From a virus (Duplodnaviria; Heunggongvirae; Uroviricota; Caudoviricetes): a DNA stretch of 64,000 bases. Shown in pieces: positions 17,963 to 61,140 of the stretch (positions are counted from its first letter, which is position 1; each line of letters opens with the position of its first letter). The stretch is taken from IMG/VR virus record IMGVR_UViG_3300028920_001945, positions 1 through 64,000 of that record; one strand, written 5' to 3'. Below the pieces are notes generated by a model. The model searched no databases. It saw only the letters and a list, made by a program, of their open reading frames with translations, and was not told where the DNA came from. Both the position numbers and the translations under genes were made by a program.

Positions 17963-18246
17963 GGATTGTATACCAACCTAGAGCTACTTAGACAACATAG
18001 AACTAAGTACCAAATTGACAATTCACTACAAAAACAATTTCACTAACTCACTACTAACAGATTTACTATTTACAGTTTATCCACCGACCTTTGACTGCTA
18101 TCTTAAACTTTATGCAATCGGGATGTAAAGAGCTAAAGGATAAGCCTCCAGGCTCATAAGATGCTATAATTGCCTATGTGTGGCCACCACAAAGTTAGGA
18201 TTCCCTACAAGGCCCTAATTGATGCATCTGAGAAACCTGGGTGTTT

Positions 18247-29765: not shown

Positions 29766-30401
29766 ATGCTTCTCAGGGAGAGAAATGTTATTAGGACCAT
29801 ATCCAGTAGAGGAATATACAATATGAACGAATATATAAATTATATAGTATCCGGTCTAGAAAGATCTGGAACATCTATGATAATGCAGATACTAGAGGCA
29901 GGTGGGGTACCAATAGAATATGATAAAACTCGTAAGGCAGACGAAAGTAATCCTAGAGGATACTATGAATTATATGATGGAAAGATAATAACCAAATTAA
30001 AAAGAGAAGAAGTTCCTTTTGAAGATTTCAAGGGAAAGTTTATTAAGATTACTGCTTATGGATTACAATACTTACCAGATAGGGAATATAAAATAATATT
30101 CTCAACTAGAAATATTAAGGAGATTGTTGAATCAGGATTTAAAATGCATCCATCAGACCAAAGAGCTGAATTTATGGAAGAAGTTTTACTTAAACTATTA
30201 AATAAGACTAAAAAGGAATTAAAGGAAAATGAAAAAATTAAAGTGTTGTATATAAATTACAATAGAATGTTAGATAGTCCCGATATAGAACTGAAGAGAA
30301 TCAAGACATTCCTAAAAGATTTTGATATAGAAAAAGCTAAAACTGTTATTGACAAAGATCTGTATAGGACTAGAGATGTAGATAATAAAAAAGAAGGTTG
30401 A
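29766..30401 (+). CDS. sulfotransferase-family protein (Stf0-like)
   Basis: PAPS 5'-phosphosulfate-binding loop YIVSGLERSGTSMI. Confidence 0.55.
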   Translation: MLLRERNVIRTISSRGIYNMNEYINYIVSGLERSGTSMIMQILEAGGVPIEYDKTRKADESNPRGYYELYDGKIITKLKREEVPFEDFKGKFIKITAYGLQYLPDREYKIIFSTRNIKEIVESGFKMHPSDQRAEFMEEVLLKLLNKTKKELKENEKIKVLYINYNRMLDSPDIELKRIKTFLKDFDIEKAKTVIDKDLYRTRDVDNKKEG

Positions 30402-34806: not shown

Positions 34807-35706
34807 GTGATTAAAATAATAATTTGTTGTTGGGATTCACTCAGATTAGACGCAGTAGAACCATTCAAAGGAATCTTAGGTGAAGAGTCATGGGGGGATG
34901 TACCATCCATAGATGGTTTCACCGCACCTGTATTACCATCAATAGTATGTGGTAAAACACCAGAAGAGCTAGGAGTACCTAGAGACGAAAGTGCATTCTT
35001 TTCTAGTATAGACCCAAATAAAATAGATGACACTTTATTTGATCACTTTGATTCACATGTTACAATATCTAGATTAATAGGACCTCAAACTATGCCTCAT
35101 ACTACAATGGTTCCATCTAGAAGAGGTAAGATGAAATTCATGCCTCCCATTAAATGGAATGCTAAGTCTAATTGGGCTATAGATATATGGAGAGAAGTAG
35201 GCAATAAGTGGTCTATGACAAATCCATATTGGGTAGATGTTATATTCTTCTGGACATTTATAACACATGGTAACTTTTCTTGTTATGATAGTTTAGGAGC
35301 TGTAGAATCACCCGAAATAAAGAATGGTGGTTTAGTAATGAAGAGATTACAGAAACAAGACCCAGAGGCTCTAAGAAAATTGTATATGATGGGAGTTTAT
35401 AATGGAGTAGAAACTCTAAAGGGACTTAATGAAATATCAGGTGGAAAGGAATTAATAATATGTTTTAGTGACCATCAAGAATGTCTTAATGAGACAATGA
35501 ATGGACAATTGATGCCTCCAGGACATTATAAAGATATGCATAAGATTCCTGGTTTAGAGAGAGTTCCAATTTGGATCAACAAACCCAATGAAGAACTTCC
35601 AAAGGAGCAGACTGACATTAAGGATTGGATAGTCAAAATGTATAATAAGTATGAGAAAAATAATCCAGAGTATCAAAAATGGAAAAAGGAAAAAAGTACA
35701 AAGTAG
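34807..35706 (+). CDS. alkaline-phosphatase-superfamily metalloenzyme (phosphodiesterase/sulfatase-like core)
   Basis: N-terminal IIICCWDSLRLD metal-site motif and C-terminal ICFSDHQE (SDHG-like). Confidence 0.5.
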   Translation: MIKIIICCWDSLRLDAVEPFKGILGEESWGDVPSIDGFTAPVLPSIVCGKTPEELGVPRDESAFFSSIDPNKIDDTLFDHFDSHVTISRLIGPQTMPHTTMVPSRRGKMKFMPPIKWNAKSNWAIDIWREVGNKWSMTNPYWVDVIFFWTFITHGNFSCYDSLGAVESPEIKNGGLVMKRLQKQDPEALRKLYMMGVYNGVETLKGLNEISGGKELIICFSDHQECLNETMNGQLMPPGHYKDMHKIPGLERVPIWINKPNEELPKEQTDIKDWIVKMYNKYEKNNPEYQKWKKEKSTK

Positions 35707-35888
35707 TTGGATGTAATTGTGGAAGAACTGCCACAAATAGATTATTGACTATGGGTATAATCAAAGATTCTATATTAGAGATTATTGCTATACAACCAAT
35801 AGGTCCAGTTACATTTAAAGTAGGAAAATCAGAATATACCTTAGGAAGAGGATTATTTGATAAGTTAATCTTGGAGGAAATAAAATGA
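35679..35888 (+). CDS. FeoA-like SH3 domain protein
   Basis: GRTATNRLLTMGI...G..I.V...G.P..F.VG FeoA pattern. 69 aa. Confidence 0.55.
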   Translation: MEKGKKYKVVGCNCGRTATNRLLTMGIIKDSILEIIAIQPIGPVTFKVGKSEYTLGRGLFDKLILEEIK

Positions 35889-36076
35889 TGAGAGGAAGAC
35901 GAACTAGGAGATATCAACGTCCTGGAAGAGGAATACCACAAGGAGATAAACCAGGTAGTGGACCAGGTGGAAATTGTATATGCCCAGCTTGTGGGTATAA
36001 GATTGAACACACATGGGCAGAACCTTGTAATACAAAAACTTGCCCTAAATGTGGAGCTAAGTTAACTAGAGAATGA
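35885..36076 (+). CDS. zinc-ribbon protein with basic N-terminus
   Basis: CICPACG...CPKCGAK. Confidence 0.4.
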   Translation: MMRGRRTRRYQRPGRGIPQGDKPGSGPGGNCICPACGYKIEHTWAEPCNTKTCPKCGAKLTRE

Positions 36077-36831
36077 TCGAGGTAAGTTTATTAATAGGAA
36101 TCTTAATATTTGCATTTTTATGTGAATTTATAGATTCTTCTTTGGGTATGGGATATGGCACTGCAGCCACTCCCTTACTTATGTTAATAGGAATACCAGC
36201 TTTAGAGATAATTCCAGCAGTATTATTATCAGAATTAATAACAGGGTTAATGTCTGGAATAGCTCATCATAAATTTGGTAATGTAGATTTTAATGTGAGG
36301 TCTAAGCATACTAAAGTTACTGCAGTTCTAGCATTATGTAGTATTTTAGGAGCTATAATTGCGGTTAATATAGTAGTAAACATACCAAAGTTCTATCTTA
36401 ACCTTTATATAGGATTATTGGTTTTAAGTATGGGAATAATTGTATTCCTAACAAGAAATAAACAATTTGGTTTTTCTTGGAAGAAGATAGTTGGATTAGG
36501 TTCAATAGCAGCCTTTAATAAAGGTATGTCAGGTGGAGGATATGGTCCAATCGTAATGAGTGGACAGATACTATCTGGAGTTGAAGATAAAAGTGCTGTA
36601 GGAATAACTTCAGTATCAGAAGCAATAACATCCTTTGTTGGATTAGTTGTATTCATATTACTTGGAAGTTATATCAATTTTGAACTTGCAATACCTATGA
36701 TAATAGGAGCTTCATGTGCAGTACCTATAGCAGCCTATACAACTAAAAGAATGAATTCCATTATTCTTAAAAGAAGTATAGCTTTATTGACTGTTGTACT
36801 AGGCTTAGTAACATTAGTAAAGTTGTTATAA
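36073..36831 (+). CDS. TauE/SafE-family (DUF81) permease
   Basis: Eight predicted TM helices arranged 4+4 with internal repeat symmetry. Gly-rich GYGTAATPLL motif. Confidence 0.6.
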   Translation: MIEVSLLIGILIFAFLCEFIDSSLGMGYGTAATPLLMLIGIPALEIIPAVLLSELITGLMSGIAHHKFGNVDFNVRSKHTKVTAVLALCSILGAIIAVNIVVNIPKFYLNLYIGLLVLSMGIIVFLTRNKQFGFSWKKIVGLGSIAAFNKGMSGGGYGPIVMSGQILSGVEDKSAVGITSVSEAITSFVGLVVFILLGSYINFELAIPMIIGASCAVPIAAYTTKRMNSIILKRSIALLTVVLGLVTLVKLL

Positions 36832-36851: not shown

Positions 36852-37904
36852 ATGACAGAAAGGAAAAAGTATAAAATAGCAGTAATGCCAGGAGATGGTA
36901 TAGGAAAAGATGTGATGGACTGTGCCATGGTTATATTGAAACACATTGACCTAGATGCAAAATACTTTCATGAAGATATAGGATTAGATGCAAAAAAAAG
37001 AAACGGTACAGCATTATCAGATCATACTCTTAGAATATTAAAAGCATGCGATTGTTGCCTATTTGGAGCTGTATCAACAACAGATGAATCCACTATCTTA
37101 AGATTAAGACAAGAATTTGCTTTAAGTACTAACTTTAGACCTTGTAAAGGTAATGGAATAGATATTGCTATATTTAGAGAAAATACTGAAGATTTATATG
37201 CTCAAGTAGAATATAATCCAATCCCAAGAAGGTTAAGGAACTTCATTAATAAACACGAACGAATGAAAAAATTTAAATATACCCCAAATGAAGAAATGGC
37301 AATAGCTTTAAGGATTATTACTGTAAAAGCATGTACAAATATAGTAGCCAGGGCGTTTAGATTTGCAGCAAGAAATAATAAAAAGAAGATCACAGTAGTA
37401 GAAAAAGCTAACGTATTGAAAGAAACTGGAAGTATAATAATTAAAGCTGTTAAAGAAATATCTAAGAAGTATCCTAATATAGAAGTAGAGATAGTTAATA
37501 TAGATAATATGTGTATGCAATTAGTAAAGAACCCTAAAAATTATGAAGTTATAGTTACTACTAATTTATTTGGTGATATATTATCAGACTTATGTAGTCA
37601 ACTAGTTGGAGGAATTGGATATGTTGGTAGTGCAAATATTGGAAAAGATTTTGCATTGTTTGAACCCATTCATGGTAGTGCTCCAAAATATGCAGGGCAG
37701 TATAAAGTCAATCCCATAGGTATGATTAGGAGTATTGTACTCATGTTGGAATGGCTAGGCGAAACAAAAAAAGCTAAAGCATTAGATTTAGCTATAAATG
37801 AAGTTATAGAAGAAGGCAAAGCGAGAACATTTGATATGGGGGGAATTAATAATAGTTTAGAGGTAGCTGAAGAAATTGCAAAGAAATATGATAACTATAT
37901 ATGA
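36852..37904 (+). CDS. isocitrate/isopropylmalate/homoisocitrate dehydrogenase-family enzyme
   Basis: NLFGDILSDLCSQLVGGIGYVGSANIG signature and an IPGDGIG N-terminal motif. Confidence 0.85.
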   Translation: MTERKKYKIAVMPGDGIGKDVMDCAMVILKHIDLDAKYFHEDIGLDAKKRNGTALSDHTLRILKACDCCLFGAVSTTDESTILRLRQEFALSTNFRPCKGNGIDIAIFRENTEDLYAQVEYNPIPRRLRNFINKHERMKKFKYTPNEEMAIALRIITVKACTNIVARAFRFAARNNKKKITVVEKANVLKETGSIIIKAVKEISKKYPNIEVEIVNIDNMCMQLVKNPKNYEVIVTTNLFGDILSDLCSQLVGGIGYVGSANIGKDFALFEPIHGSAPKYAGQYKVNPIGMIRSIVLMLEWLGETKKAKALDLAINEVIEEGKARTFDMGGINNSLEVAEEIAKKYDNYI

Positions 37905-39003
37905 TACTACTTTAAGAGATGGAGAACAGATGCCTGGTGTATTCTTCACAAAACCTCAAAAGTTAGATATTGCAAGAAAATTAGATGAAGTGGGGATAGA
38001 TGAGATAGAAGCTGGATTTCCAGCTATATCCAATAGAGAAGCCGATATAGTGAAGTCAATAGTTAATGAAGGATTAGATGCTAATATATTAGGATTATCT
38101 AGATTAAATAAAAAGGATATAGATATAGCAGCATCATCAGATGTTGATAAGATTATATTATTTGTAGGAACTTCAGATTACCATTTGAAATATAAGCTCC
38201 ATACAACATTAAATGATTTAAAAGAAAAAATGAAAGATTGTATAGATTATGCAAAACAATATGGAGATGTAACATTTGGATTTGAAGATTCTACTAGGAC
38301 AGATATAAGTATATTAAGAGATCTATCTAAAATAGTAACTGAATGTGGTGCTAAGAGAATAGGAATTGCAGATACAGTTGGTTGTGCAACTCCAATTATG
38401 ATTAAAAAATATGTAACTTCTTTAAAAGAGATAACTAATATACCAATATCATTACATCTACATAACGATTTGGGTTTAGTTACAGCAAATGCTTTTGCAG
38501 GTTTAGAAGCAGGCTCTAATGTCTATGCAACAACTGTAAATGGTATAGGAGAAAGAGCAGGTAATCTTCCCCTAGAACAATTTGCTATGATACTTAAGTT
38601 ATTTTATAAAACACATATAGACACTACAAAATTATATGAATTATCCCAATTAGTATCACTATATTCCAAAGTGCCTATATATATGAATCAACCTCTAGTC
38701 GGTAAAAATGCATTTGCTCATGAGTCGGGAATACATGTAGCAGCAATTCAAGAGAATCCAATAACATATGAATTCATACCTCCAGAAATGGTTGGTAATA
38801 AGAGAAGATTTATATTAGGTAAACATAGTGGTAAGAAGTCTATAGAGATGAAACTTAAAGAATATGGATTAAAGACTAGTATCGATAATATATGTAAAAT
38901 ATTAGATAGAGTAAAGAGATTAGGAGAGATTCAGGGAGAGGTTAGTGATATAGAGTTTCTTAATATAACTAAGGAGATTATTAATGAGGGTATGGAGATA
39001 TAA
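37876..39003 (+). CDS. short LeuA/homocitrate-synthase/citramalate-synthase-family enzyme (DRE-TIM aldolase)
   Basis: IYDTTLRDGEQ motif and HxH metal site (LHLHND). 375 aa, with no LeuA regulatory domain. Confidence 0.85.
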   Translation: MQRNMITIYDTTLRDGEQMPGVFFTKPQKLDIARKLDEVGIDEIEAGFPAISNREADIVKSIVNEGLDANILGLSRLNKKDIDIAASSDVDKIILFVGTSDYHLKYKLHTTLNDLKEKMKDCIDYAKQYGDVTFGFEDSTRTDISILRDLSKIVTECGAKRIGIADTVGCATPIMIKKYVTSLKEITNIPISLHLHNDLGLVTANAFAGLEAGSNVYATTVNGIGERAGNLPLEQFAMILKLFYKTHIDTTKLYELSQLVSLYSKVPIYMNQPLVGKNAFAHESGIHVAAIQENPITYEFIPPEMVGNKRRFILGKHSGKKSIEMKLKEYGLKTSIDNICKILDRVKRLGEIQGEVSDIEFLNITKEIINEGMEI

Positions 39004-39487
39004 ACAAGACAACATAAATACAGATTTATTATTTCCTGGAAAGAGATGCTTTCTGGGTAGTGATGAAAAAACTCTAAAGAAATATATATTAGAAGATTTA
39101 GATGAGACATTTGCTAAAGAAGTGCAACCTGGGGATATTATAATAGCAAATAAGAACTTTGGATGTGGAAGCTCAAGAGAACATCCAGTATTAGGCTTAA
39201 AGGCAGTTGGAATTGTAGCCGTTATTGCAGAAAGTTTTGCTAGAATATTTTTTAGATGTTCTATTAATAATGGATTAACCATAATAGAATCTCCAGAAAT
39301 GGTAAGAAGATACAAAAATGGAGATAAAGTTAGTGTATATGAGAGAATTGGAATAGTAAGAATTGGTGATAATGTTTATCATATTCCAAAAATGAATAAT
39401 GAAATATTGGAAATAAAGAAAAATGGCGGACTACTTGAATACACAAGAAAAAAACTCAGAGAAAAAAACATTCAAAATAAAGCCTGA
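38984..39487 (+). CDS. LeuD-like aconitase-family small subunit (no large subunit in window)
   Basis: ANKNFGCGSSREHP swivel-domain signature. 167 aa. Confidence 0.85.
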   Translation: MRVWRYKQDNINTDLLFPGKRCFLGSDEKTLKKYILEDLDETFAKEVQPGDIIIANKNFGCGSSREHPVLGLKAVGIVAVIAESFARIFFRCSINNGLTIIESPEMVRRYKNGDKVSVYERIGIVRIGDNVYHIPKMNNEILEIKKNGGLLEYTRKKLREKNIQNKA

Positions 39488-40055
39488 AACATACGTAGTA
39501 TTATTTAGTGGTGGGTTAGATAGTACTTATGCTCTATGGTACTGTGTGGCAAAGACAGATAATCCTGTTCATACACACCATGTTATTATAAGAAATGATG
39601 TATCAAAGAGATGGAAAGAAGAAAGAGAAGCTTGTAGGGATATTGTAGATTATTTACAAAAGAATTATAGAGATTTTGATTATTCAGAGTCTGGATTTGA
39701 TTTCTTTAATTTTAGAAATGTAAATTGGGATGTTGATATAGCTTTAATAGCTGGAATTATGGTAGCAAGAAATATAATGGGACTTAAGAGAATAGTATCT
39801 GGACCCACAAAAAGTGATTTAGATAGAAATCCCCATATTCCATCAGATATATTGAAGAGTGCAATTATGCCTAAAGACTGTATATATGAAGAAGGTTTTC
39901 GTCCCGGTATAACTAAAACTAAAAAAGAGATATATGATGAAATGCCTAAAGAATTATCCAAATTAGCATGGTCATGTAGACATCCAAATAATGGTAAGCC
40001 ATGTGGTGAATGTAAGGCATGTAGGCTTAGAATAGAAGAAGGAATCCCTTTATAA
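39423..40055 (+). CDS. queC: QueC-like PP-loop ATPase (7-cyano-7-deazaguanine synthase family), paralog 1
   Basis: PP-loop VVLFSGGLDST. C-terminal zinc motif WSCRHPNNGKPCGECKACRLR. 5' 65 nt overlap the LeuD-like gene. Confidence 0.75.
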   Translation: MADYLNTQEKNSEKKTFKIKPETYVVLFSGGLDSTYALWYCVAKTDNPVHTHHVIIRNDVSKRWKEEREACRDIVDYLQKNYRDFDYSESGFDFFNFRNVNWDVDIALIAGIMVARNIMGLKRIVSGPTKSDLDRNPHIPSDILKSAIMPKDCIYEEGFRPGITKTKKEIYDEMPKELSKLAWSCRHPNNGKPCGECKACRLRIEEGIPL

Positions 40056-40700
40056 ATGACTAAAGAAAAGAAAAAAATTGTAATTAAACCTCTTAAAATA
40101 GTTATGTTTAGTGGTGGACTTGATAGTACATTTATTCTTTGGTTTTATCTTACAAAAACAAAGTTTGATGTACATGTGCATCATATAAGAATTAGAAACT
40201 CTATCTCAAAAAGATGGGAAAAGGAAGATGAAGCAGTAAAAAATATAATAGAATATTGTAAAGAAAATTATAGGAAATTTACATATTCAGAATCTGCATT
40301 CGACTTCTTTGGTTTTCCTAATGTAAACTGGGATGTAGATGTAGCAGGTTTTGTAGGAACTATGGTTGCTAGAAGTCTTATTATATATAGAAATGAAGAA
40401 CCTCTTAATAGACCCATGACTATATGTGTAGGAGCCTGTAAGGACGATGGAATCAATGAACATAGACAATTAGGAATATTGGATGGTATCATAAGAAACT
40501 CTTCATTACTAGAACCAACCACTACACCTAGAGCTGAAAGAATAGCCTCTAATATGACTAAAAAACAAATGCTAGAAAAGATGCCCAAAGAATTATCAGA
40601 TTTAACTTGGTCTTGCAGAATTCCAAAGGCAGGTAAACCCTGTGGTAAATGTAAATCATGTAAAATTATAAATAAAGCAAAGGAAGAATTGGGATGGTAA
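40056..40700 (+). CDS. queC: QueC-like PP-loop ATPase, paralog 2
   Basis: PP-loop IVMFSGGLDST. C-terminal zinc motif WSCRIPKAGKPCGKCKSCKII. Confidence 0.75.
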   Translation: MTKEKKKIVIKPLKIVMFSGGLDSTFILWFYLTKTKFDVHVHHIRIRNSISKRWEKEDEAVKNIIEYCKENYRKFTYSESAFDFFGFPNVNWDVDVAGFVGTMVARSLIIYRNEEPLNRPMTICVGACKDDGINEHRQLGILDGIIRNSSLLEPTTTPRAERIASNMTKKQMLEKMPKELSDLTWSCRIPKAGKPCGKCKSCKIINKAKEELGW

Positions 40701-46186: not shown

Positions 46187-46376
46187 ATTTGAGGAAGTTT
46201 GCAAAATCCTTAAAGATAGAGGTTATAGAGCAGTTAGTATGGAAGGTCCAACAAAAAGAATATTTATAGATGATGAACATAACATAAATATAACTATAGA
46301 AATAGATAATGACACTCTAACTGCTGAAGATGAGAAAATTATAGAAGAACGTTTAATAGAATTAGGTTATCTATAA
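46170..46376 (+). CDS. hypothetical protein
   Basis: 68 aa. Confidence 0.4.
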   Translation: MMTMSEFEEVCKILKDRGYRAVSMEGPTKRIFIDDEHNINITIEIDNDTLTAEDEKIIEERLIELGYL

Positions 46377-47299
46377 TGAAAAAGAAAAAAGTGGTAATTA
46401 CCGGAATAAGTGGCTTCATTGGAAGTAACTTAGCAGAATATCTTGATACAGATTATGATATAGTTGGTTTTGATAGAGAACCATGGAAGGATCAGAATAA
46501 TAGACCGTTTTTTAAACAGGATATAAATGATCCCCTAACAGATTTGCATGATGTATATGCAGTCATTCATCTGGCAGCCAAAGCTGGAGTTAGAGAATCT
46601 CAAGATAATTTTGAACAATATGTTCATGATAATATTCTTGGAACAAAATCTATTCTAGATAAATGTATAGACTGGAAACCTTCCATTATATTAATTGCAT
46701 CTTCTTCCAGTATATCAGGGGATAAGGAGAGAGGACACTTTCCAAAATCATTATATGCAGTCAGTAAAGTTACAACAGAAGAGATTTTAAATTCCTATAT
46801 AAGAAATGGGTTATTGGATAGTGATACAACTACTTCAATATTAATACCCTATACTGTATATGGACCCAATCAGAGAAAAGGTCTAGCTATAAGAAATTTT
46901 ATAGATGCAATTATTAGAGAGCAACCCATAACTATATATGGAGATGGAACTCAATCTAGAGATTTCACATACATAGAAGATCTTTGTATAAAGATAAAAC
47001 AAATGCTAGATGAACCTCATAGTATAGGACAAATAACTCATTTAGGTTCAAGAAAACAATACACCATAAATCAGATTATATCTATGATAGCGAGAATTAC
47101 GGAAAAACCCATAACGGTTAATTACGTACCAAGAAATAGATTTGATGTTGATTCTACTCTAGCTCCATATCCATGCTTAGATAAAATAACACCCATAGAG
47201 AGAGGATTAGAAAAACAAATTAAGTGGGCAAAGAATATCTATAATATAGAAAGATTAAGAAAGAATGCCCAAAATTTAAATAAGGAAAAGAAAAAATGA
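46376..47299 (+). CDS. NAD-dependent sugar epimerase/dehydratase (extended SDR)
   Basis: VVITGISGFIGSNL Rossmann motif and YAVSK catalytic YxxxK. Confidence 0.85.
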   Translation: MKKKKVVITGISGFIGSNLAEYLDTDYDIVGFDREPWKDQNNRPFFKQDINDPLTDLHDVYAVIHLAAKAGVRESQDNFEQYVHDNILGTKSILDKCIDWKPSIILIASSSSISGDKERGHFPKSLYAVSKVTTEEILNSYIRNGLLDSDTTTSILIPYTVYGPNQRKGLAIRNFIDAIIREQPITIYGDGTQSRDFTYIEDLCIKIKQMLDEPHSIGQITHLGSRKQYTINQIISMIARITEKPITVNYVPRNRFDVDSTLAPYPCLDKITPIERGLEKQIKWAKNIYNIERLRKNAQNLNKEKKK

Positions 47300-48189
47300 G
47301 CTTTGATTTAGCTATGGCCTTTGATAAGGCAGAATATCTAAATCCTCAAATATATATGCTCATAGATACCTTAAAGGATAATATTCCTAAGGATACAATA
47401 CTTCATATTAATACAAATCGTTCCGATGACAATGAACTACTACAATATATCCATAAGTGTTTAGGGACGATAGTATATAAAAAACCTCCATTTGAGGATT
47501 TAAAGTCAAGGTGTCAATATATGTTTCATGCATTTGAAATTGAAACAGATAAAGAATGGATAATGAAAATAGAAGGGGATCTGCTGGTACTTAAGAATCT
47601 TAACGAATTTGATAAGTTATTGAAGCCAGAGTATGATCTGGTTATAGAACCTGAGAATAGAAAAATACATTCAGATATTATCGCCACAAAACTTTGGAGA
47701 TTAATATATAATCGTCTTGATATAAAACAACCTAAGGATAAAATTGTTTTTAGGGAGAACAATGAAGAAGGTTTACCATTGTATGGAACTGGATTAGTTT
47801 GTGTAAAGAACAAGCATCTAGAAACTATTAATAATAGATGGATTCCATTAACTAAAATTTGTGAGGACTGGATTCAATTTAATATTCATCCAAATGAATT
47901 TGCCTTTACTGCTATGACATATGATGAAGGATGGAACACTTACTTATATCCTCCAAAATATAAATTCAATCCAATAGGACATTTCAGAAAGGGGGATTAT
48001 CCTTCAACTGAATTGATAGAGAACTGTAAATTACCAGAAGATACAATTATCTTTGATTATCATAGACCTGAATGGTTGATGCATGTTGCTAAATATAATG
48101 AGAATATTCGTAATATTATAAAACGAAATAAGAAATATATACCAGAAGACTGGTGGAATCTAACTACAGGAGATTTTCAGGAAGGATGA
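47296..48189 (+). CDS. hypothetical protein in glycan cluster
   Basis: 297 aa with no clear motif. Possibly a glycosyltransferase-like fold. Confidence 0.45.
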   Translation: MSFDLAMAFDKAEYLNPQIYMLIDTLKDNIPKDTILHINTNRSDDNELLQYIHKCLGTIVYKKPPFEDLKSRCQYMFHAFEIETDKEWIMKIEGDLLVLKNLNEFDKLLKPEYDLVIEPENRKIHSDIIATKLWRLIYNRLDIKQPKDKIVFRENNEEGLPLYGTGLVCVKNKHLETINNRWIPLTKICEDWIQFNIHPNEFAFTAMTYDEGWNTYLYPPKYKFNPIGHFRKGDYPSTELIENCKLPEDTIIFDYHRPEWLMHVAKYNENIRNIIKRNKKYIPEDWWNLTTGDFQEG

Positions 48190-48731
48190 AAAATCATAAG
48201 CCTACAACACAATTCATAAAACGTATTTATAAAAAACAGAACTTAATTGGAGTAGAAGTAGGTGTATGGAAAGGTAGTAATGCTAAAGATATGTTAGAGT
48301 TTCTACCCATAAAGAAATTATATTTAGTAGATCCATATCTACATTATAATAATTATAATGATTATAAAGAAGACGATATGGATGAGATGTATCTGAAAGT
48401 TAAAAAGAAATTTGAACCATTTGGAGATAAGGTTGAATTAATTAGAAAAATGTCCTTTGATGCATTAGATAATATTCCAGATGAATGTGATTTTATTTAT
48501 ATAGATGCAAACCATGCATATGAATTTGTTAAGAAGGATTTAGAATTATTTTATCCAAAAGTAAAAAAAGGTGGAATATTGGGAGGTCATGATTATCATT
48601 ATCTAAGACATCCAGGAGTAACCAAAGCAGTAGATGAATTTTGTAATAATATTAATAGTAAGATTTATAGTATGATTGAAAGTATAGATAGTAGAGGATT
48701 AGAAGTATCAGATTGGTGGATGATTAAATAA
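48153..48731 (+). CDS. class I SAM-dependent O-methyltransferase (TylF/MycF-like)
   Basis: LIGVEVGVWKGSNA SAM motif I and DANHAYEFV motif. Confidence 0.7.
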   Translation: MESNYRRFSGRMKNHKPTTQFIKRIYKKQNLIGVEVGVWKGSNAKDMLEFLPIKKLYLVDPYLHYNNYNDYKEDDMDEMYLKVKKKFEPFGDKVELIRKMSFDALDNIPDECDFIYIDANHAYEFVKKDLELFYPKVKKGGILGGHDYHYLRHPGVTKAVDEFCNNINSKIYSMIESIDSRGLEVSDWWMIK

Positions 48732-49924
48732 TGAGAGTATTCAAGAAAATATCAACTCCTTTTGTAGATTCAAGACCTGATAAAGCTATTATAGTAGTGA
48801 ATGGAATAGACCCACAAGTAAATACTATAAAGGCTTTTATACAGGCGTGTGACGATTATAAGATCAGTTATACAGTTTTTGTTAATAAGACAGATTGTTT
48901 AGAGGATGAAAAGTATACAGTTGGTTATATTAAGCAATCTCTAAATTTAAAAGATATTCAGTTTGGCTCTGCTAAAACTGGAAAGGGATTCAAAAAATTA
49001 GCAACATATCTAGACCTGTGGTTTGGTAAGAGAATTATAGTTTTGGGTGTATTTAATTCTGGAAAGACATCTTTAATAAATAGATTAACAGGAGAAAACC
49101 TTAAGGTAGGAACAATACCTGGAACTACTCTAGAATTTACAGAAATACCTGTTAATGGAACAGTTAAGAATATAGGAAAAGAAAATGAGGAAAAGATAGA
49201 AACAGTCTTAATAGATTCTGTAGGTCAATTAATAGATATACATAAACCCATGATGGTATCTATAGATTTTAGTGGTTGTATAACCGGATATGAAAAAATA
49301 AATAAAGTATTTGAAGAAGAAATATTGGGATTAGTTGAAACTCAAGAAAGAGTTAAGAATGATATATTTACAGTAGTTAAGGTTATTAAGCAAGCTTTAT
49401 CAGAAGGTAATAAAATTATAATTACAGGAGCTGGAGCATCAGCTTTAGTAGCTAAAGAGATGGCTGGGCAAGGAACAGAATGTGGTTTACCAATTTTGGT
49501 ATTTACTAATGATGGAGCTGAATTACAACCTGTAACATTCTCAAAGGGTCTAGGAGAACAAGAAGGTGGTTTATCTAAATATATAGCTAATGCAATTAAT
49601 CCAGGAGATATAGTTATAGGAATTAGTGCATCAGGTGGTACTGGATTTGTATTTGATACCTTAAGAAGAGGTAGAGAAAAGAAAGCAATTCCCATAGCTA
49701 TAACAGAGAATTCTGATACACCTTTAGGACATGCAGCTCTATATATAATAAAAAGTGAAGCTAAACCAGAAGGACCCAGTAGTTCCAAAATACAAACAGC
49801 CCATTTGGTTATAGGCCATGCCTTAATATTAACACTAGCAGATGAACTAGGAGTATCAGCTGATGAATCAGTTGGATATATGTTACCAGAAATATTAGAA
49901 AATAAAAAAATGGGAATTAAATAA
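48731..49924 (+). CDS. circularly permuted GTPase fused to SIS (sugar isomerase) domain
   Basis: The order G4 VNKTD, then G5 SAKTG, then G1 GVFNSGKTSLINRL, then G2 GTT, then G3 DSVG is the cpGTPase topology (YlqF/YqeH-like). The C-terminal half has SIS motifs IIITGAGAS...VIGISASGGTG. Confidence 0.6.
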   Translation: MRVFKKISTPFVDSRPDKAIIVVNGIDPQVNTIKAFIQACDDYKISYTVFVNKTDCLEDEKYTVGYIKQSLNLKDIQFGSAKTGKGFKKLATYLDLWFGKRIIVLGVFNSGKTSLINRLTGENLKVGTIPGTTLEFTEIPVNGTVKNIGKENEEKIETVLIDSVGQLIDIHKPMMVSIDFSGCITGYEKINKVFEEEILGLVETQERVKNDIFTVVKVIKQALSEGNKIIITGAGASALVAKEMAGQGTECGLPILVFTNDGAELQPVTFSKGLGEQEGGLSKYIANAINPGDIVIGISASGGTGFVFDTLRRGREKKAIPIAITENSDTPLGHAALYIIKSEAKPEGPSSSKIQTAHLVIGHALILTLADELGVSADESVGYMLPEILENKKMGIK

Positions 49925-50283
49925 TGACAGAATATTCTATAGAAGAACATAAATGGGAAATAAAGGGAATACCAGATGAAGATGGTATATTATTTAAGAT
50001 GTACCTTTCAGATATAGGAGAAATTGGAAGAGCACGAGTAGTTAAAATATTTAATGATACTCGACAACAATATTATGCTCTCTTAGAGGATTTAATATTA
50101 GAAGAAGAATATAGAGGTATAGGATTTGGATATATGTTTGTAAAACAGATTATTCAAGAAGTGGAAAAAGAAGGATGCTATAAGTTTATAGCTACATCCA
50201 GATTCGGTAGAGATATGATACATAAATTTTATATGGATTTAGGTTTTAAAGAGTGGGGCTACGAATTTAGAATTGATTTATGA
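49924..50283 (+). CDS. GNAT-family N-acetyltransferase
   Basis: EEYRGIGFGYMFVKQ acetyl-CoA motif A. 119 aa. Confidence 0.55.
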   Translation: MTEYSIEEHKWEIKGIPDEDGILFKMYLSDIGEIGRARVVKIFNDTRQQYYALLEDLILEEEYRGIGFGYMFVKQIIQEVEKEGCYKFIATSRFGRDMIHKFYMDLGFKEWGYEFRIDL

Positions 50284-51179
50284 ATATAGGATATTTTAAT
50301 GCTAGAGGCATAAATGATGTTGAACATTGGTTTGCTTTAGAAATAGAAGAATTACTTAGAAGAAAACATAATGTTGTAAATTTTTCATTTAGAGGACAAC
50401 AACCAAATAGAGAGCATATCCAGTGGATGGATTTTGCTCATTTTCATTTTGCTCAAGTAGCAGACCACTATAAGAGAATTGGAGTTCCATTTGCTATAAG
50501 TCCTCACGCTAATGATATATTTGTGGATAATGGAGCTACTCTTATAAAGGCTAGCAAACATCCCAAATGTAAATTTGTAACATACCAATCATTTTATCAT
50601 AAGAGAAAATTTGAGGAATGGGGAATAACTAAACCTCTAGTATATTTACCAATGTGTTGTAGAGTAAATTTATTCAAGAGAGAACATCCCACATTACATT
50701 TAACAGGAGATAAAATAATAGCGGGTGGAAGATTAATACCTAAAAAGGGATTAGATAGATTATCTTCAGTAGATAATTTAGTTATATTTGGTACTGGTCC
50801 ATTAGAGGATGAATTAAAGGAGAAATTACCTAAGGCTGAATTTGTTGGATGGCAGAGTGGTGATGTATTAAAATATACATATTCAAGAGGATGGATATTT
50901 TTAAATCCTAGTATAGTTACTGGAGATGGAGATTCAGATGGTATTCCTAACACCATTAAAGAAGCTATGCTTATGGAGATGCAAGTAATATCAAGTCCAG
51001 TAGCTGGTATACCTGAATTAGAACAGGTAACATTATTTGATGATTGGGATAATATAAATGAATGTATAGAGACTATACCTAGAATTCCTAACAAGAAGGG
51101 AAGGAAGGAGATATTAAATACCTATAGTCCTAGATCATGTGTAGATAGATTATTAAAGGCAATAGAGGAATATAATTGA
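50280..51179 (+). CDS. glycosyltransferase (GT-B, group 1-like)
   Basis: GGRLIPKKGLDRL and an EAMLMEMQVISSPVAGIPE region. Confidence 0.6.
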   Translation: MNIGYFNARGINDVEHWFALEIEELLRRKHNVVNFSFRGQQPNREHIQWMDFAHFHFAQVADHYKRIGVPFAISPHANDIFVDNGATLIKASKHPKCKFVTYQSFYHKRKFEEWGITKPLVYLPMCCRVNLFKREHPTLHLTGDKIIAGGRLIPKKGLDRLSSVDNLVIFGTGPLEDELKEKLPKAEFVGWQSGDVLKYTYSRGWIFLNPSIVTGDGDSDGIPNTIKEAMLMEMQVISSPVAGIPELEQVTLFDDWDNINECIETIPRIPNKKGRKEILNTYSPRSCVDRLLKAIEEYN

Positions 51180-51883
51180 TAGATGCTATAATTTTAGCTG
51201 CAGGAAAAGGCACAAGATTAATGCCCATAACTCAAGATAAACCAAAAGCTATGGTGGAAGTTAAAGGTAAACCTATAATAAGTTGGATCCTAGATGTATT
51301 AAAACAAATACAAATAAAGAAAGTATTTATAATAACAGGATATAGAGAAGGAACTCTAAAATCGTATATAAAATATAATTATAAGGATATGGATATAAAT
51401 TTCCTTCATCAAAAAGAATTAACTGGTACTGCAGATGCAATAGCATTAGCAGAAGGTTATATTGGAAATAACTTTTTAGTATTATCCGGAGATACTATAT
51501 ATAAACCAGAAGAACTCATGAAATTAATGGAATGGGAAAATTCTCTTTTATATACAGAACAAAATACTAGATTATATGAATATGGGACCATAGATCTAAA
51601 TACCAATAAATTACCAGAAGAAGGATTTTATTTGAAATTCATAAATGAAAAAACAACTAGACCAACAACTAATAATATTAATTGTGGAGTATATCACTTT
51701 AATAGAGAAGTTTTTAGATATATAAGAGATACAGAATATGATGGGAGATTCAGTGAAAAGATTATAACTAATACAATAAATATGATGATAGATGATGGTA
51801 TTGACTTTAGAGGTTTTTATGTTAAGGAATTAAATGAAATATCCAGACCAGAGGATATAGAGAATATAGAGAATAGATTATGA
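51176..51883 (+). CDS. sugar-phosphate nucleotidyltransferase (HddC/GlmU-like)
   Basis: AIILAAGKGTRLMPIT signature. Confidence 0.8.
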   Translation: MIDAIILAAGKGTRLMPITQDKPKAMVEVKGKPIISWILDVLKQIQIKKVFIITGYREGTLKSYIKYNYKDMDINFLHQKELTGTADAIALAEGYIGNNFLVLSGDTIYKPEELMKLMEWENSLLYTEQNTRLYEYGTIDLNTNKLPEEGFYLKFINEKTTRPTTNNINCGVYHFNREVFRYIRDTEYDGRFSEKIITNTINMMIDDGIDFRGFYVKELNEISRPEDIENIENRL

Positions 51884-53124
51884 AAATACTATTGTCTACC
51901 TTACCAAATGAAGGACAATATATAAGTTGGTTAACTAACCCAACATTTAGAGTGGAAGTTAATAAATATATGCCTCTAGGTATATTATCATTAGCAACAA
52001 ACCTCCCACAAGAACACGATATTAAAGTTATAGATCCAGCTAGTGAGGATTGGTCTATAGATAAAACAATTTCGATTATAGAAAATGAAGAGCCTGATAT
52101 ATTAGGAATATCTGCAGTAACAAGACGTGTATATGCATTAAAGGAGATTCTTTCTAGGATAAATGTTCCATATATTACAGTAGGAGGACCACATGCAACT
52201 CATTATTCAGAGCAAATATTAGAATATGGTGCTGATGCAGTATTTGTTGGACCATTAGCTGATAATGAATTTAGATACAATTTGAATAAAAAAGCTAGAG
52301 GTATAATATATTGTAAGACTGGTATAAATGAAATTAAATTCCCAAATAGAGAATTTTTAGAAGTAAATAAATATTTTCCAAAGGCACATAAACTATTTGT
52401 AGCTGATAATCGTCTTCCTATGTTTTCTAGTATAGGATGTCCAAATAAATGTCTTTTTTGTAATGTACAAACTAAGAAAATACAGTTAAAAAATTCAAAT
52501 ATAATACTAGATGAAATGGAATATTTAAAATCATTAAATTGTAATAGTGTTCATATGTTGGATGATAATTTCAATGTAAGTAAAAAACATTTAAATAGCA
52601 TCATTAAGGAATTTAAAGAAAGAGACTTTAATATAGAATGGAGTGGTAGAGGTCAAGTTAAAATGGATCTATCTATGTTATCTAAATTAAAGGAAGTTGG
52701 TTTTAAAAGAATGCATGTTGGTATAGAAGCCCTAGATGATAATATATTAAAATACTTTAATAAAAATCAAACAGTTAATGATATAGAAAATTTTTGTAGA
52801 GAGATGACAAATTTAGATTTGGATATTATAGGATACTTTATATTTGGAAGTCCAGTAGAAACAAAAGAATATAGAAAGAATGTTATCAAGAAAATAAGAG
52901 ATTTAAATATAAATAAAGTTCTTTGTCATGTATTATTTCCTCAACCAAATACTGGATATTATTTTGAATTATTAAATAAGGGTACATTCAAGGAAGATTA
53001 TTGGAAAAAATATATGGAAGGTCCCACTCCAAATTATGAGTTGCCATACCCGTTTGGGGAAGAATATAAAAATGAGATATGGAATTTTATGGAAGATTTG
53101 AAAAAGGAATTTAAATATATATAA
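51880..53124 (+). CDS. B12-binding radical SAM enzyme (class B, methyltransferase-like)
   Basis: N-terminal cobalamin-binding-like domain, then CPNKCLFC (Cx3Cx2C). 414 aa. Confidence 0.75.
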   Translation: MKILLSTLPNEGQYISWLTNPTFRVEVNKYMPLGILSLATNLPQEHDIKVIDPASEDWSIDKTISIIENEEPDILGISAVTRRVYALKEILSRINVPYITVGGPHATHYSEQILEYGADAVFVGPLADNEFRYNLNKKARGIIYCKTGINEIKFPNREFLEVNKYFPKAHKLFVADNRLPMFSSIGCPNKCLFCNVQTKKIQLKNSNIILDEMEYLKSLNCNSVHMLDDNFNVSKKHLNSIIKEFKERDFNIEWSGRGQVKMDLSMLSKLKEVGFKRMHVGIEALDDNILKYFNKNQTVNDIENFCREMTNLDLDIIGYFIFGSPVETKEYRKNVIKKIRDLNINKVLCHVLFPQPNTGYYFELLNKGTFKEDYWKKYMEGPTPNYELPYPFGEEYKNEIWNFMEDLKKEFKYI

Positions 53125-53136
53125 GAGGTAATTAAT

Positions 53137-54126
53137 ATGAAATGTGTAGTAACTGGTTGTTGTGGTTTTATTGGTAGTAACTTAGTTCAGACCTTATTAG
53201 ATGAAGGCCATGAAGTTGTAGGTATAGATAAGAACTATAGTCCATTAAGATTGCCTTATAATGAAAAAGCTTACAAGATACATGAAGGAGATTATAATAA
53301 GATAACAAAAAAATTTACTTTTATATGGGCTCCCTTACATGAGATACGAGTATTTAGTTATTTAATGGATAATACAGACATTGTATATCATTTAGCTGCC
53401 TATGTAACTATAAGAAATGAAGATATCCATGATAATATAAAGAATACTGTAGAAGGAACATTTGAATTACTAGACCTTATTGTAAGTAGAGAAATTCCCA
53501 GACTTGTATTTGCATCAACTTCTTCAATATATGGAGAAGATGCAGTTGGTTTTATAGATGAAGATTCTATAACCTTAAAACCAATTTCCCATTATGCATC
53601 AGGAAAAATAGCTAATGAAGCTTACATTAATAGTTATGCTTATCATAATAACTTTAGAGCTTGGATCTTTAGATTTGCAAATGTAACGGGTAAGAATCAG
53701 AACAGAGGAGCAATCTGGGATTTTATACATCAATTAAAGGAAAATCCAGAAAAACTGACAGTATTAGGAAATGGTAAACAAAGAAAATCATTTTTTGATG
53801 TAGATGATTGTGTAAGAGGACTAATAGATATACCTAAGAAAGATAAGAATTTAAATGTAGAAGTATACAATCTAGGTAACGATCAGATAATAACCGTTGG
53901 AGAAATAGCTAAATTAGTTTGTGAAGAAGTTGGAGTAGATGCAAAAATAAAGTATTCAGGTGGAGATAGAGGTTGGGTGGGAGATACACCTAATACTGAG
54001 ATATCCATAACTAAAGCATTAAATACAGGATGGTGTCCTAAATATACTTGTGAAGAATCTGTTAGGAGGACCGCAAAATGGATGCTTACAAATTGGAATG
54101 CCCTGAGTGTGGAAGAGAACTCTTAG
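53137..54126 (+). CDS. NAD-dependent sugar epimerase/dehydratase
   Basis: VVTGCCGFIGSNL and YASGK catalytic motif. Confidence 0.85.
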   Translation: MKCVVTGCCGFIGSNLVQTLLDEGHEVVGIDKNYSPLRLPYNEKAYKIHEGDYNKITKKFTFIWAPLHEIRVFSYLMDNTDIVYHLAAYVTIRNEDIHDNIKNTVEGTFELLDLIVSREIPRLVFASTSSIYGEDAVGFIDEDSITLKPISHYASGKIANEAYINSYAYHNNFRAWIFRFANVTGKNQNRGAIWDFIHQLKENPEKLTVLGNGKQRKSFFDVDDCVRGLIDIPKKDKNLNVEVYNLGNDQIITVGEIAKLVCEEVGVDAKIKYSGGDRGWVGDTPNTEISITKALNTGWCPKYTCEESVRRTAKWMLTNWNALSVEENS

Positions 54127-54221
54127 GTGATTATGTGGAATTTCACCGAATTGGTTGGTATTGTAGTAACTGTAATATAAATATATATAAAGATATATAT
54201 GGAGATATTAGGGGATAAGAA

Positions 54222-60366: not shown

Positions 60367-60486
60367 ACAATTATTCATAAATATAAAAATCGTAATTTAA
60401 TAGTTCCTGATTTTATTATAGCAGGAAACGAAAGATCTGGTACTAGTTATTTAAATATATGGTTAAATACACATGAGAATATATAT

Positions 60487-61137: not shown

Positions 61138-61140
61138 ATA

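Follow-up and report, generated by a model that had tools for sequence, protein, structure and literature searches.

A tandem pair of QueC-like proteins in a probable archaeal virus is part of a separate branch of the QueC fold carried mostly by viruses

Introduction

What might a virus make with two neighbouring QueC-like genes when the other genes of the preQ0 pathway do not lie beside them? The question is raised by par1 and par2 in the first 64,000 nucleotides of IMG/VR record IMGVR_UViG_3300028920_001945; this whole 64-kb stretch is the window of our analysis. In QueC, the substrate motifs YxQxHxxE, VPxRN and YPDC, together with Y189, are essential by mutagenesis, and within the motifs Y35, R99 and the aromatic residue at 131 are essential (PMC13329287). 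The fold also occurs outside queuosine synthesis, namely in Cap9 and QatC, which serve anti-phage defence through protein deazaguanylation. In addition, the "singleton QueC-like" protein of phage Muddy has already been separated as another N-type ATP pyrophosphatase subfamily (Hutinet 2019, PMC6884629). We found no assigned function in the literature for such a stand-alone QueC-like clade. Automatic annotation names many of its members "QueC, queuosine biosynthesis", a label that would falsely predict 7-deazaguanine DNA modification.

Results

par1 and par2 are intact, conserved neighbours

par1 (39423-40055, + strand) encodes a QueC-fold PP-loop ATP pyrophosphatase of 210 aa, here subtype 1; public gene calls start it at the alternative TTG at 39435, giving 206 aa. 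par2 (40056-40700, + strand) encodes a 214-aa protein of the same fold, subtype 2, and its ATG directly abuts the par1 stop codon TAA. Both are intact ORFs, share 46% identity over 202 residues (E 3e-61) and are under purifying selection when compared with their orthologues (dN/dS 0.16-0.32). Both contain FSGGLDST, an SGGxDS pyrophosphate-binding loop, and SCRxPxxGKPCGxCKxC, that is, the zinc motif C(x)8CxxCxxC; the zinc cysteines of par1 are C185, C194, C197 and C200, and equivalents are present in par2. The original prediction of two adjacent proteins of about 210 aa with SGGLDS and the QueC zinc motif was therefore confirmed. The Pfam QueC family PF06508 matched par1 at 39.8 bits and par2 at 35.1 bits (gathering score 22), and in both cases the match covered no more than the PP-loop at the N-terminus and the zinc region at the C-terminus. 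PHROG 1550 matched par1 at E 4e-21 and par2 at 1.4e-18.

The window encodes homologues of PolB, PriS, ERCC4 and ribosomal protein S17e, and the closest relative contig was binned with a Thermoplasmatales MAG. An archaeal host is therefore probable, rather than the bacterial one implied when the virus was first framed as a phage. The genes of the virus are tightly packed throughout, and tRNA-His and tRNA-Gln genes are among them.

The window holds no 7-deazaguanine system and the pair has lost the QueC substrate motifs

All non-overlapping ORFs of 50 aa or longer across the 64 kb were compared with Pfam, through direct or precomputed matches. None of these ORFs matched GTP_cyclohydroI (FolE), PTPS/QueD or a TGT/DpdA transglycosylase. 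Of the radical-SAM family there were three proteins, distinguished by B12-binding or SPASM domains or by a length of 378 aa; no match linked any of them to the QueE-like genes that canonical viral preQ0 clusters contain. A comparison of the window ORFs with the QueE and FolE genes of canonical viral clusters L030-L032 also gave no match. The window holds no 7-deazaguanine system, and the original claim that DpdA and the rest of the preQ0 pathway are missing near the pair extends to all 64 kb. PreQ0 genes could lie elsewhere in a probably larger genome, beyond the window; a par2 variant of 90% identity is carried on a contig of 115,760 bp.

We then aligned both paralogues with canonical QueCs, a check suggested with the original prediction, and observed that the substrate motifs and the Tyr189 equivalent are gone from both. 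The YxQxHxxE position reads V-S-K-R-W-K-E-E in par1 and I-S-K-R-W-E-K-E in par2, with the last Glu alone retained. VPxRN corresponds to VARN in par1 and VARS in par2; elsewhere in their clade the position is ICxx without the Arg, and the site is not conserved. YPDC aligned to NPH(I) in par1 and NEH(R) in par2, and the zinc-region SCY of QueC is SCR in both, which removes the Tyr189 equivalent. The QueC equivalog model TIGR00364 scored par1 and par2 at 30.3 and 23.1 bits, against a cut-off of 150.3. Since the residues that QueC needs for preQ0 are all missing, we predict from the alignment that par1 and par2 are not preQ0 synthases and do not convert CDG to preQ0. Counterparts of Y115 and D117, which hold the base in Cap9, were also absent from both proteins. 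The alternative first offered for this locus, that the pair specifies a non-standard deazaguanine derivative for use in DNA or tRNA, is thus unsupported, because both the QueC substrate motifs and the Cap9 base-binding residues are lacking.

We consider it highly improbable that the pair belongs to a standard or variant 7-deazaguanine system, in which working QueCs, or enzymes for CDG- or ADG-type bases, would draw FolE, QueD, QueE and DpdA from the host or from outside the window. Both proteins do pass the PF06508 gathering score and have the QueC fold and zinc motif, but their TIGR00364 scores fall well under the cut-off, and three substrate motifs are lost along with the Y189 equivalent. 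Archaeal hosts produce preQ0 for archaeosine (PMC13329287), and the visible genome is a 64-kb part; within that part, however, there is neither a pathway gene nor a transglycosylase. Furthermore, preQ0 genes are linked to canonical viral QueCs but not to the clade of par1 and par2: its closest viral relatives lack them, whereas the more distant canonical QueCs adjoin QueE and FolE. QatC, in which the same motifs are remodelled, does not complement a queC deletion. With the pathway genes absent from 64 kb and the substrate motifs lost, the locus is not a standard 7-deazaguanine cassette, as had been proposed. The retained PP-loop and the missing motifs also make probable the different ATP-dependent reaction that had been suggested.

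par1 and par2 belong to a widespread clade with its own conserved pocket

par1 and par2 are members of a distinct, widespread and mostly virus-borne clade of the QueC fold. Our family profile gathered 273, 1,325 and 3,074 clusters (50% identity) at E<=1e-30, 1e-10 and 1e-3, respectively. Solved QueCs scored only ~22 bits against the clade profile, versus 83 bits (E 3e-27) for Muddy gp16. The clade has invariants of its own (HxHH, RxxxE, Y[ST]ES, DxD, GxTKxD, K167 and WSCRxP), and both par1 and par2 contain 22 of the 22 clade-invariant residues. In the predicted structure, these lie beside the PP-loop at the C-terminal ends of parallel strands. His52/His53, Glu67, Glu89, Asp103/Asp105 and Asp132 are among the residues that never vary in the clade. 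The clade retains the PP-loop SGGLDS, a conserved Lys and a structural Cys4 zinc knuckle, while the entire substrate pocket is different. It is almost entirely uncultured: a T4-type member used as a protein query found two cultured phages only. A nucleotide search with the 5-kb region gave no match among 50,697 phage records.

Among 94 neighbours at 20 viral loci, no consistent Pfam partner emerged. Two families without annotation were the only neighbours to recur: one is a class I methyltransferase-like protein of 238 aa, the other a domain of 147 aa. The 64-kb window contains no homologue of either, and we found no PDB relative of the 147-aa domain. The methyltransferase that neighbours clade genes is closest to small-molecule methyltransferases. 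Some clade members are fusion proteins: one partner is an ANL acid-activating enzyme, another a small domain that in phages is also found next to the gene. In Burkholderiales MAGs, where the high-GC genes were identified by profiles, a QueC-like gene is the first of an operon that also encodes four glycosyltransferases and a histidine phosphatase. None of the sugar genes of the window adjoins the pair; glycosyltransferase genes lie no closer than 11 kb upstream, and a sugar island starts 5.7 kb downstream.

The tandem joins two subtypes across a mosaic breakpoint

Orthologues of par2 are single genes in the related viruses L121 (72% identity) and L064 (65%), and the orthologue in the virus variant L122 is 98.6% identical. 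In another relative, L057, a par1-type orthologue lies next to EamA transporters, and Leu-like genes are absent. Sliding 100-base identity to L122 was 0.65-0.88 upstream of ~40100 and 0.93-1.00 downstream, placing a mosaic (recombination) breakpoint at 40050-40100, the par1/par2 junction. par1 and the Leu-like genes upstream of it share 65-77% amino-acid identity with L122, versus ~99% for par2 and the downstream genes; dS to L122 was 0.79 for par1 and 0.76 for the LeuD-like gene. par1 shares one mosaic segment with the Leu-like genes, and par2 is the viral backbone copy.

The local pair therefore consists of sister subtypes and is not a recent in-place duplication. Of the "duplicated" QueC in the original prediction, the paralogy stands at 46% identity; the local duplication does not, as each gene is single in relatives and the breakpoint falls between them. 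Given the synteny in related viruses and the position of the breakpoint, the tandem probably arose by juxtaposition: par2 would be the backbone gene already present in a variable cargo island, and par1 would have arrived on, or would recombine with, the LeuB/LeuA/LeuD-like segment.

At least five lineages acquired paired paralogues independently. Fused double domains account for 7 of the 150 top clusters, several with a dead PP-loop (SGGRNS, SGGYAS or SGGAHS). This recurrent, independent pairing or fusion suggests that the clade enzyme works as a dimer; the Cap9 core is homodimeric. par1 and par2 may form a heterodimer, or two homodimers of different specificity. A heterodimer is not required, since either type of gene can be found without the other in related viruses.

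Leu-like and other genes in the variable island

The pair follows a Leu-like trio, as originally described, in the order LeuB-like, LeuA-like, LeuD-like, par1 (all on the + strand). The LeuB/AksF-like beta-decarboxylating dehydrogenase (36852-37904) matched Iso_dh at E 3.5e-82, and its best NCBIfam model was AksF2_Meth (320 bits, cut-off 540). The LeuA/homocitrate-synthase-like condensing enzyme (37876-39003; HMGL-like E 4e-76, HCS_D2 E 9e-24) has no C-terminal regulatory domain. Its best NCBIfam models were archaeal IPMS, citramalate and homocitrate synthases, all under their equivalog cut-offs. The LeuD/HacB-like small subunit of an aconitase-type dehydratase (38984-39487; Aconitase_C E 1e-17; TIGR02087 LEUD_arch 153 bits, above the cut-off of 109) is 77% identical to its L122 orthologue, overlaps the par1 start and belongs to the mosaic segment of par1. 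No ORF of 50 aa or longer in the window matched an aconitase-family large subunit (LeuC/HacA); the trio alone is therefore not a complete pathway.

The original prediction proposed, as its main idea, that par1 or both proteins amidate a carboxylate produced by 2-oxoacid elongation through these enzymes, or convert it to a nitrile; in that case the block would form a small cassette for a new amide or nitrile metabolite. The mosaic structure favours this weakly, and for par1 alone, which shares the segment; par2 lies beyond the breakpoint. Between the variants, par1 and the Leu-like genes have diverged to a similar degree, and the breakpoint separates par1 from par2 exactly; however, breakpoints at gene boundaries are common in mosaic viral genomes. 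par1 also overlaps the end of the LeuD-like gene, which carries little weight because genes are tightly packed everywhere in this virus. Chemically, the di- and tricarboxylates made by Leu-like enzymes are fit for adenylation, and the fusions with ANL enzymes show that the clade can couple to carboxylic-acid activation. Nevertheless, LeuA, LeuB and LeuD homologues were near relatives at 0 of 53 viral and 0 of 55 genomic loci, the par1-type orthologue in L057 is without Leu-like genes, and the window has no LeuC large subunit. We also found no report in the literature of Leu-type genes in archaeal viruses. Overall, we regard coupling to the Leu-like enzymes as unlikely.

Further upstream, the island contains a TauE/SafE-family anion permease (36073-36831, + strand; PF01925 E 2.6e-32); L057 has two EamA half-transporters at the equivalent position. 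Next to it is a 63-aa zinc-ribbon protein with an Arg/Gly-rich N-terminal tail (35885-36076, + strand), for which only generic zinc-ribbon matches were obtained. It has orthologues in L121, L064 and L057, at 56-66% identity, that share the invariant GDKPGSGPxGNCxCPxCG...CPKCG. A FeoA-domain protein (35679-35888, + strand; PF04023 E 2e-10) has an orthologue in L121 that immediately follows the one QueC-like gene there.

The island is bounded upstream by an alkaline-phosphatase/sulfatase-fold gene (34807-35706, + strand; 299 aa) with no Pfam match. Of its 98 homologues, 2 are annotated as Pfam Sulfatase; its AF2 model (pLDDT 89.6) matched sulfatases and the MCR-1 catalytic domain in Foldseek at E 3e-7. 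We considered it as a functional partner, given its position ahead of the QueC-like gene in the related contigs L064, L057 and L121, and rejected it as a backbone gene because it is also present in L124 and L127, which lack the QueC-like gene. "Saccharibacteria"-binned contigs carry a sulfatase-like gene between paired QueC-like genes; what it shares with the 34807-35706 gene does not extend beyond the DHGE metal motif (hhalign probability 36%).

Discussion

We give roughly even chances to the following explanation: par1 and par2 are QueC-fold enzymes with a remodelled pocket that, rather than making preQ0, catalyse ATP-dependent carboxylate adenylation and amide formation, likely as dimers. 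Each enzyme would bind ATP, adenylate the carboxylate of its substrate and release pyrophosphate; the acyl-adenylate would then pass to an amine or ammonia, yielding an amide. By analogy with the characterised enzymes of the fold (QueC, Cap9 and QatC), and judged from the fold alone, this chemistry on a carboxylate other than CDG is the most likely. As for the substrate class, a small-molecule or glycoconjugate carboxylate is our leading guess, which we hold weakly. The Burkholderiales glycosyltransferase operon makes the WbpG-type N-acetyl sugar amidotransferases (PF06508 cluster 5; PDB 8WEX), which perform PP-loop amide or amidine chemistry on sugars, a precedent for the glycoconjugate reading.

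Three observations count in the other direction: the gene neighbourhoods at the viral loci are heterogeneous, no sugar gene of the window adjoins the pair, and PP-loop relatives such as TilS, ThiI and GMP synthase adenylate a nucleobase carbonyl instead of a carboxylate.

The N-terminal third of the clade resembles TilS, including HVHH after strand 2: the segment SGGLDS...HVHH aligns with TilS (1NI5, E 0.002), and PF01171 and TilS_N matched par1 and par2 weakly. A TilS/ThiI/TtuA-like reaction, in which the enzymes would adenylate a base carbonyl of tRNA or DNA before amination or another substitution, would also fit the tRNA-His and tRNA-Gln genes of the virus and the methyltransferases that adjoin the QueC-like gene in many phages. 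In an archaeal cellular contig, the relative P0006 adjoins a tRNA-intron endonuclease and a pseudouridine synthase. We nonetheless think base modification improbable.

Because several fused forms carry a dead PP-loop, the clade might instead perform an undescribed conjugation with one catalytic and one regulatory or specificity subunit. In that event par1 could have been recruited to a cassette of 2-oxoacid elongation and anion permease, either for production and export of a new amide or nitrile metabolite or for attachment of the acid to a partner such as the 63-aa zinc-ribbon protein. This is a speculative proposal, with little probability in our estimate. If true, it would extend QueC-fold reuse for protein-nucleobase conjugation from bacterial immunity to the viral side.

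Setting aside these alternatives and returning to adenylation and amide formation by a remodelled QueC fold, the comparison with known systems is instructive. Canonical QueC (PDB 3BL5 and 2PG3; TIGR00364) has in common with par1 and par2 the SGGxDS PP-loop and the zinc motif, but has YxQxHxxE, VPxRN, YPDC and the zinc-region Tyr, which the pair lacks, and its gene has queD, queE or folE neighbours, which are missing from the window.

Cap9 of type IV CBASS (PDB 9NTO) is the best structural match and of similar minimal size. It keeps the CDG-binding signature (Y/FxQ(x)5E, RN and H(x)4YxDC) that par1 and par2 lack, and its gene lies beside those for a CD-NTase and Cap10, whereas the neighbours of the pair are the LeuD-like gene and small unknown ORFs. 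QatC (PDB 9Y01 and 9VLK), like the pair, keeps the PP-loop and zinc site with remodelled substrate motifs. However, it is ~400 aa long, with N- and C-terminal extensions and a motif set of its own, and it is encoded with qatA, qatB and qatD; there are no ATPase or TatD genes near the pair. The QatC model NF041925 scored par1 and par2 at 18.3 and 15.4 bits (cut-off 280), and Foldseek matched QatC at E ~0.02.

The match to Cap9 raises the question of whether the pair conjugates something to a partner N-terminus, perhaps that of the 63-aa zinc-ribbon protein, or whether the two are viral mimics that disrupt type IV CBASS or Qat defence. Modification of protein N-termini is by now an established activity of QueC-family enzymes, type IV CBASS occurs in archaea too, and the zinc-ribbon protein is conserved near the QueC-like gene in 4 of 4 related virus contigs. 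Yet the zinc-ribbon gene has no fixed order next to the QueC-like gene, and the co-occurrence is confined to one virus group. With the deazaguanine-binding motifs kept by Cap9 but lost in the clade, QatC model scores this far under the cut-off, and no CD-NTase, Cap10, QatA, QatB or QatD near the pair, we find either role quite improbable.

Our analyses thus describe a further large branch of the QueC fold, ~1,300 clusters (50% identity) at E<=1e-10, found mainly in phages and archaeal viruses and distinguished by a pocket conserved within the branch and by repeated occurrence as two subunits or as a fusion. Finding its substrate would reveal a new chemistry of viral auxiliary function or counter-defence. 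The closest known systems are the singleton QueC-like phage proteins (PHROG 1550; Mycobacterium phage Muddy gp16 and Escherichia phage ECML-4), which belong to the same clade and, like par1 and par2, have no preQ0 genes alongside. Muddy gp16 shares THHV, RxxxE and WWCRRPxxxxPCxKCRTC with the clade. In contrast to these singletons, par1 and par2 are two tandem subtypes whose virus is probably archaeal and whose neighbours include Leu-like metabolic genes, and this tandem, with one copy tied to the Leu-like cassette, offers a concrete test system for the clade.

QueC-like proteins without the preQ0 signature

The par1 gene (39423-40055; 210 aa, or 206 aa from the TTG at 39435, the start in public gene callers) and the par2 gene (40056-40700; 214 aa) meet at a TAAATG junction, where the par2 ATG abuts the par1 stop codon. 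As the original prediction held, the products are paralogs of about 210 aa: they share 46% identity (E 3e-61), and each contains FSGGLDST together with a C(x)8CxxCxxC motif of the QueC type. Purifying selection acts on both genes (dN/dS 0.16-0.32 against orthologs in related contigs). Upstream of par1 lie, in order, LeuB/AksF-like (36852-37904), LeuA/homocitrate-synthase-like (37876-39003), and LeuD-like (38984-39487) genes, the trio behind which the pair had been placed, and ahead of them a TauE permease, a small zinc-ribbon protein, and a FeoA-domain protein. Pfam annotation, run directly or taken from precomputed hits, of all non-overlapping ORFs in the 64-kb window that were 50 aa or longer revealed no GTP cyclohydrolase I, PTPS/QueD, QueE-type radical-SAM enzyme, or TGT/DpdA, confirming that the preQ0 pathway and DpdA are missing nearby.

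Both proteins match Pfam QueC (PF06508) through the PP-loop and zinc region only (par1 39.8 and par2 35.1 bits against 22), and they reach 30 and 23 bits on the curated QueC equivalog, whose cut-off is 150. A 2026 mutagenesis study of PF06508 defined the canonical signature as SGGxDS, YxQxHxxE (Y35), VPxRN (R99), YPDC (Y131), Y189, and the zinc motif (PMC13329287). When aligned with canonical QueCs, par1 has VSKRW and par2 ISKRW at the YxQxH position, and the window proteins have NPH or NEH for YPDC and SCR for SCY; par1 does contain VARN, but its Arg is not conserved across the clade. In the Cap9 structure, the residues that hold the deazaguanine base are the Tyr and Asp of YxDC, which have no counterpart in par1 or par2, and the Arg of RN. 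QatC, in which the same motifs are remodeled, does not complement a queC deletion (PMC13329287). The loss of the CDG motifs agrees with the suggestion that the pair may carry out a step different from that of QueC, and we consider it very probable that par1 and par2 are not preQ0 synthases and belong to a stand-alone, mostly viral clade.

A large clade with its own motifs

A single-sequence search of 5.8 billion proteins returned 15 matches, and a profile built from close relatives returned thousands; an exhaustive HMMER search across 1.84 billion cluster representatives yielded 273 clusters at E ≤ 1e-30, 1,325 at E ≤ 1e-10, and 3,074 at E ≤ 1e-3. PHROG 1550 ("QueC-like") was matched at E 4e-21. 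With the clade profile, solved QueCs scored only ~22 bits and Mycobacterium phage Muddy gp16 scored 83 bits. The clade invariants are HxHH after strand 2, RxxxE, Y[ST]ES, DxD, GxTKxD, a Lys, and WSCRxP ahead of the zinc knuckle, and all are found in both par1 and par2. An AlphaFold model (pLDDT 86.8, pTM 0.84) places them at the C-terminal ends of the parallel strands, beside the PP-loop; judging from topology, PP-loop enzymes would bind their substrates here.

The closest viral relatives (30-36% identity, ~25 loci) never occur with preQ0 genes; in the same scan, more distant canonical QueCs were beside QueE, FolE, and a phosphoribosyltransferase. In ten marine or freshwater phage loci, the QueC-like gene is directly followed by one for a 238-aa class I methyltransferase-like protein, whose best likeness, a weak one, is to small-molecule methyltransferases. 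Six loci encode a 147-aa domain that is also fused to the QueC-like domain in the cluster representative P0129. In many Burkholderiales MAGs (L110:8001-15093 and ~20-30 other loci among L067-L120), the QueC-like gene comes first in a conserved operon with overlapping start and stop codons, followed by an MJ1255-type glycosyltransferase, two GT4 glycosyltransferases, a histidine phosphatase, a MurG-like glycosyltransferase, and a 274-aa unknown gene; the operon is divergent from an adenylate/guanylate cyclase gene and adjoins COQ7. On bacterial chromosomes, the QueC-like domain also stands behind a complete ANL acid-adenylating (AMP-binding) enzyme in one chain (P0249, P0227, L074:6516-8636, L129:8001-10106), with an overlapping 190-aa unknown gene before the fusion gene and a metallophosphoesterase after it. 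One archaeal cellular relative adjoins a tRNA-intron endonuclease. A Pfam census of 94 viral neighbors revealed no other recurrent partner.

Mosaic origin of the pair

We compared the window with related contigs from the same and similar samples, in which a conserved backbone gene (34807-35706; 299 aa, no Pfam match) borders a variable cargo island. In L121, the backbone gene is followed by a single par2-type gene (72%), FeoA, the zinc-ribbon gene, and the window's three downstream genes; in L064 (backbone gene 88%), by the zinc-ribbon gene and a single par2-type gene (65%); and in L057 (55%), by two EamA half-transporters and a single par1-type gene (54%). L122 has LeuA (70%), LeuD (77%), par1 (65%), par2 (98.6%), and the downstream genes (91-98%). 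When DNA identity to L122 was computed in a sliding window, a sharp breakpoint appeared at ~40,050-40,100, the par1/par2 junction, with values of 0.65-0.88 upstream and 0.93-1.00 downstream; dS against L122 was nearly equal for par1 (0.79) and LeuD (0.76). Given these arrangements, the breakpoint, and the dS values, the tandem is not a recent in-place duplication. The "duplicated QueC" of the original prediction thus stands as paralogy (46% identity) but not as a recent local event: par2 is the resident of the cargo island, and par1 travels with the Leu-like segment.

Each of the four related virus contigs (L121, L064, L057, and the window) encodes, near a QueC-like gene, the zinc-ribbon protein (35885-36076; 63 aa, with an Arg/Gly-rich N-terminal tail and the invariant GDKPGSGPxGNCxCPxCG...CPKCG). 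The backbone gene product has an alkaline-phosphatase/sulfatase fold (AF2 pLDDT 89.6; Foldseek matches to chondroitin sulfatase and the MCR-1 catalytic domain, E ~3e-7), and its ~98 homologs lie on contigs that reach ~140 kb (57-140 kb for the longer ones) and seem to represent a family of related archaeal viruses. Because the backbone gene also occurs in relatives without a QueC-like gene, we ruled it out as a partner and regard it as the island edge.

Co-segregation of par1 with the Leu-like genes on one mosaic segment lends some support to the proposal that a QueC-like step acts on an acid made by these enzymes. However, LeuA/LeuB/LeuD homologs were near clade members at none of 53 viral and 55 genomic loci, the par1-type gene of L057 is without Leu-like neighbors, and the trio lacks its aconitase-type large subunit (LeuC/HacA), which Pfam did not detect in window ORFs of at least 50 aa. 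A functional tie between par1 and the trio is therefore quite unlikely. The LeuA-like protein is without the C-terminal regulatory domain; neither it nor the LeuB-like protein reaches any NCBIfam equivalog cut-off, and PHROG has no match for the LeuA- or LeuD-like protein. The small subunit encoded by the virus might redirect the large subunit of its host.

The virus and its host

The replicon looks like an archaeal virus, since it encodes a ribosomal protein S17e homolog (15795-16076), an ERCC4 nuclease (16275-16904), a PriS-like primase (20888-21796), and a family-B DNA polymerase (22437-24959), all of which point to an archaeal host; a ribosomal-protein gene is unusual in a virus. The most closely related contig was binned with a Thermoplasmatales MAG. 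The window also carries tRNA-His(GUG) and tRNA-Gln(CUG) genes (7617-7690 and 17890-17963). In bacteria tRNA-His is a queuosine target; nothing ties it to the QueC-like genes here.

Sugar and modification genes form a 17-kb island at 46376-63382. It encodes two NAD epimerases/dehydratases, an NTP transferase, a GHMP kinase, and SIS domains (one fused to a GTPase); a transaldolase, a split transketolase, and a PfkB kinase; and three radical-SAM enzymes (one B12-binding, one SPASM), a sulfotransferase, four methyltransferases, and a glycosyltransferase. This content suggests viral synthesis of an unusual glycan carrying sulfate and methyl groups. The sulfotransferases (29766-30401 and 60487-61137), an APS kinase in L064 (L064:12949-13476), the TauE permease, and the sulfatase-fold gene form a sulfur/sulfation theme in the virus group.

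A probable dimer and its possible chemistry

Paired paralogs recur: side by side in the IMG/VR locus L018, flanking one gene in a 481-kb T4-like phage (L065), and, in Saccharibacteria-binned contigs, 3 kb apart. Among the best 150 cluster representatives, seven combine two QueC-like domains in one chain, and in four of these (P0163, P0167, P0187, P0209) the Asp is gone from the N-terminal PP-loop (SGGRNS, SGGYAS, SGGLAS, SGGAHS) and the C-terminal loop is intact, suggesting a built-in pair of catalytic and pseudo-enzyme domains. A neighbor-joining tree indicated that the duplications are independent of one another. These pairs, fusions, and independent duplications, together with the homodimeric core of Cap9, point to a probably dimeric enzyme that would have repeatedly evolved into a heterodimer.

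Drawing on sequence, fold, and context for all functional statements on par1 and par2, we propose that ATP would bind at SGGLDS of each protein, a carboxylate on a non-CDG substrate would be adenylated, and the acyl-adenylate would be passed to ammonia or an amine to give an amide, with the Cys4 zinc knuckle playing a structural role and the enzyme acting as a dimer. We give carboxylate-adenylating amide chemistry an even chance; for the window pair, a heterodimer and two homodimers are about equally probable. Gene context weakly favors a small molecule or glycoconjugate as the substrate, an assignment that we make tentatively, at less than an even chance.

As a practical warning, a "QueC" annotation in viromes does not imply DNA modification. 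The clade represents a known fold in a functionally distinct form and is of moderate interest to specialists in 7-deazaguanine biology and virus-host conflict. Earlier work had noticed it without characterizing it: the "singleton QueC-like" proteins of Muddy and ECML-4 were considered to be probably another N-type ATP pyrophosphatase subfamily (Hutinet et al., 2019; PMC6884629). What is new is how large and broad the clade is, with members in archaeal viruses and in a bacterial glycosyltransferase operon, along with its distinctive set of motifs, its recurrent paired or fused architecture with degenerate PP-loops, and the mosaic origin of the par1/par2 pair.
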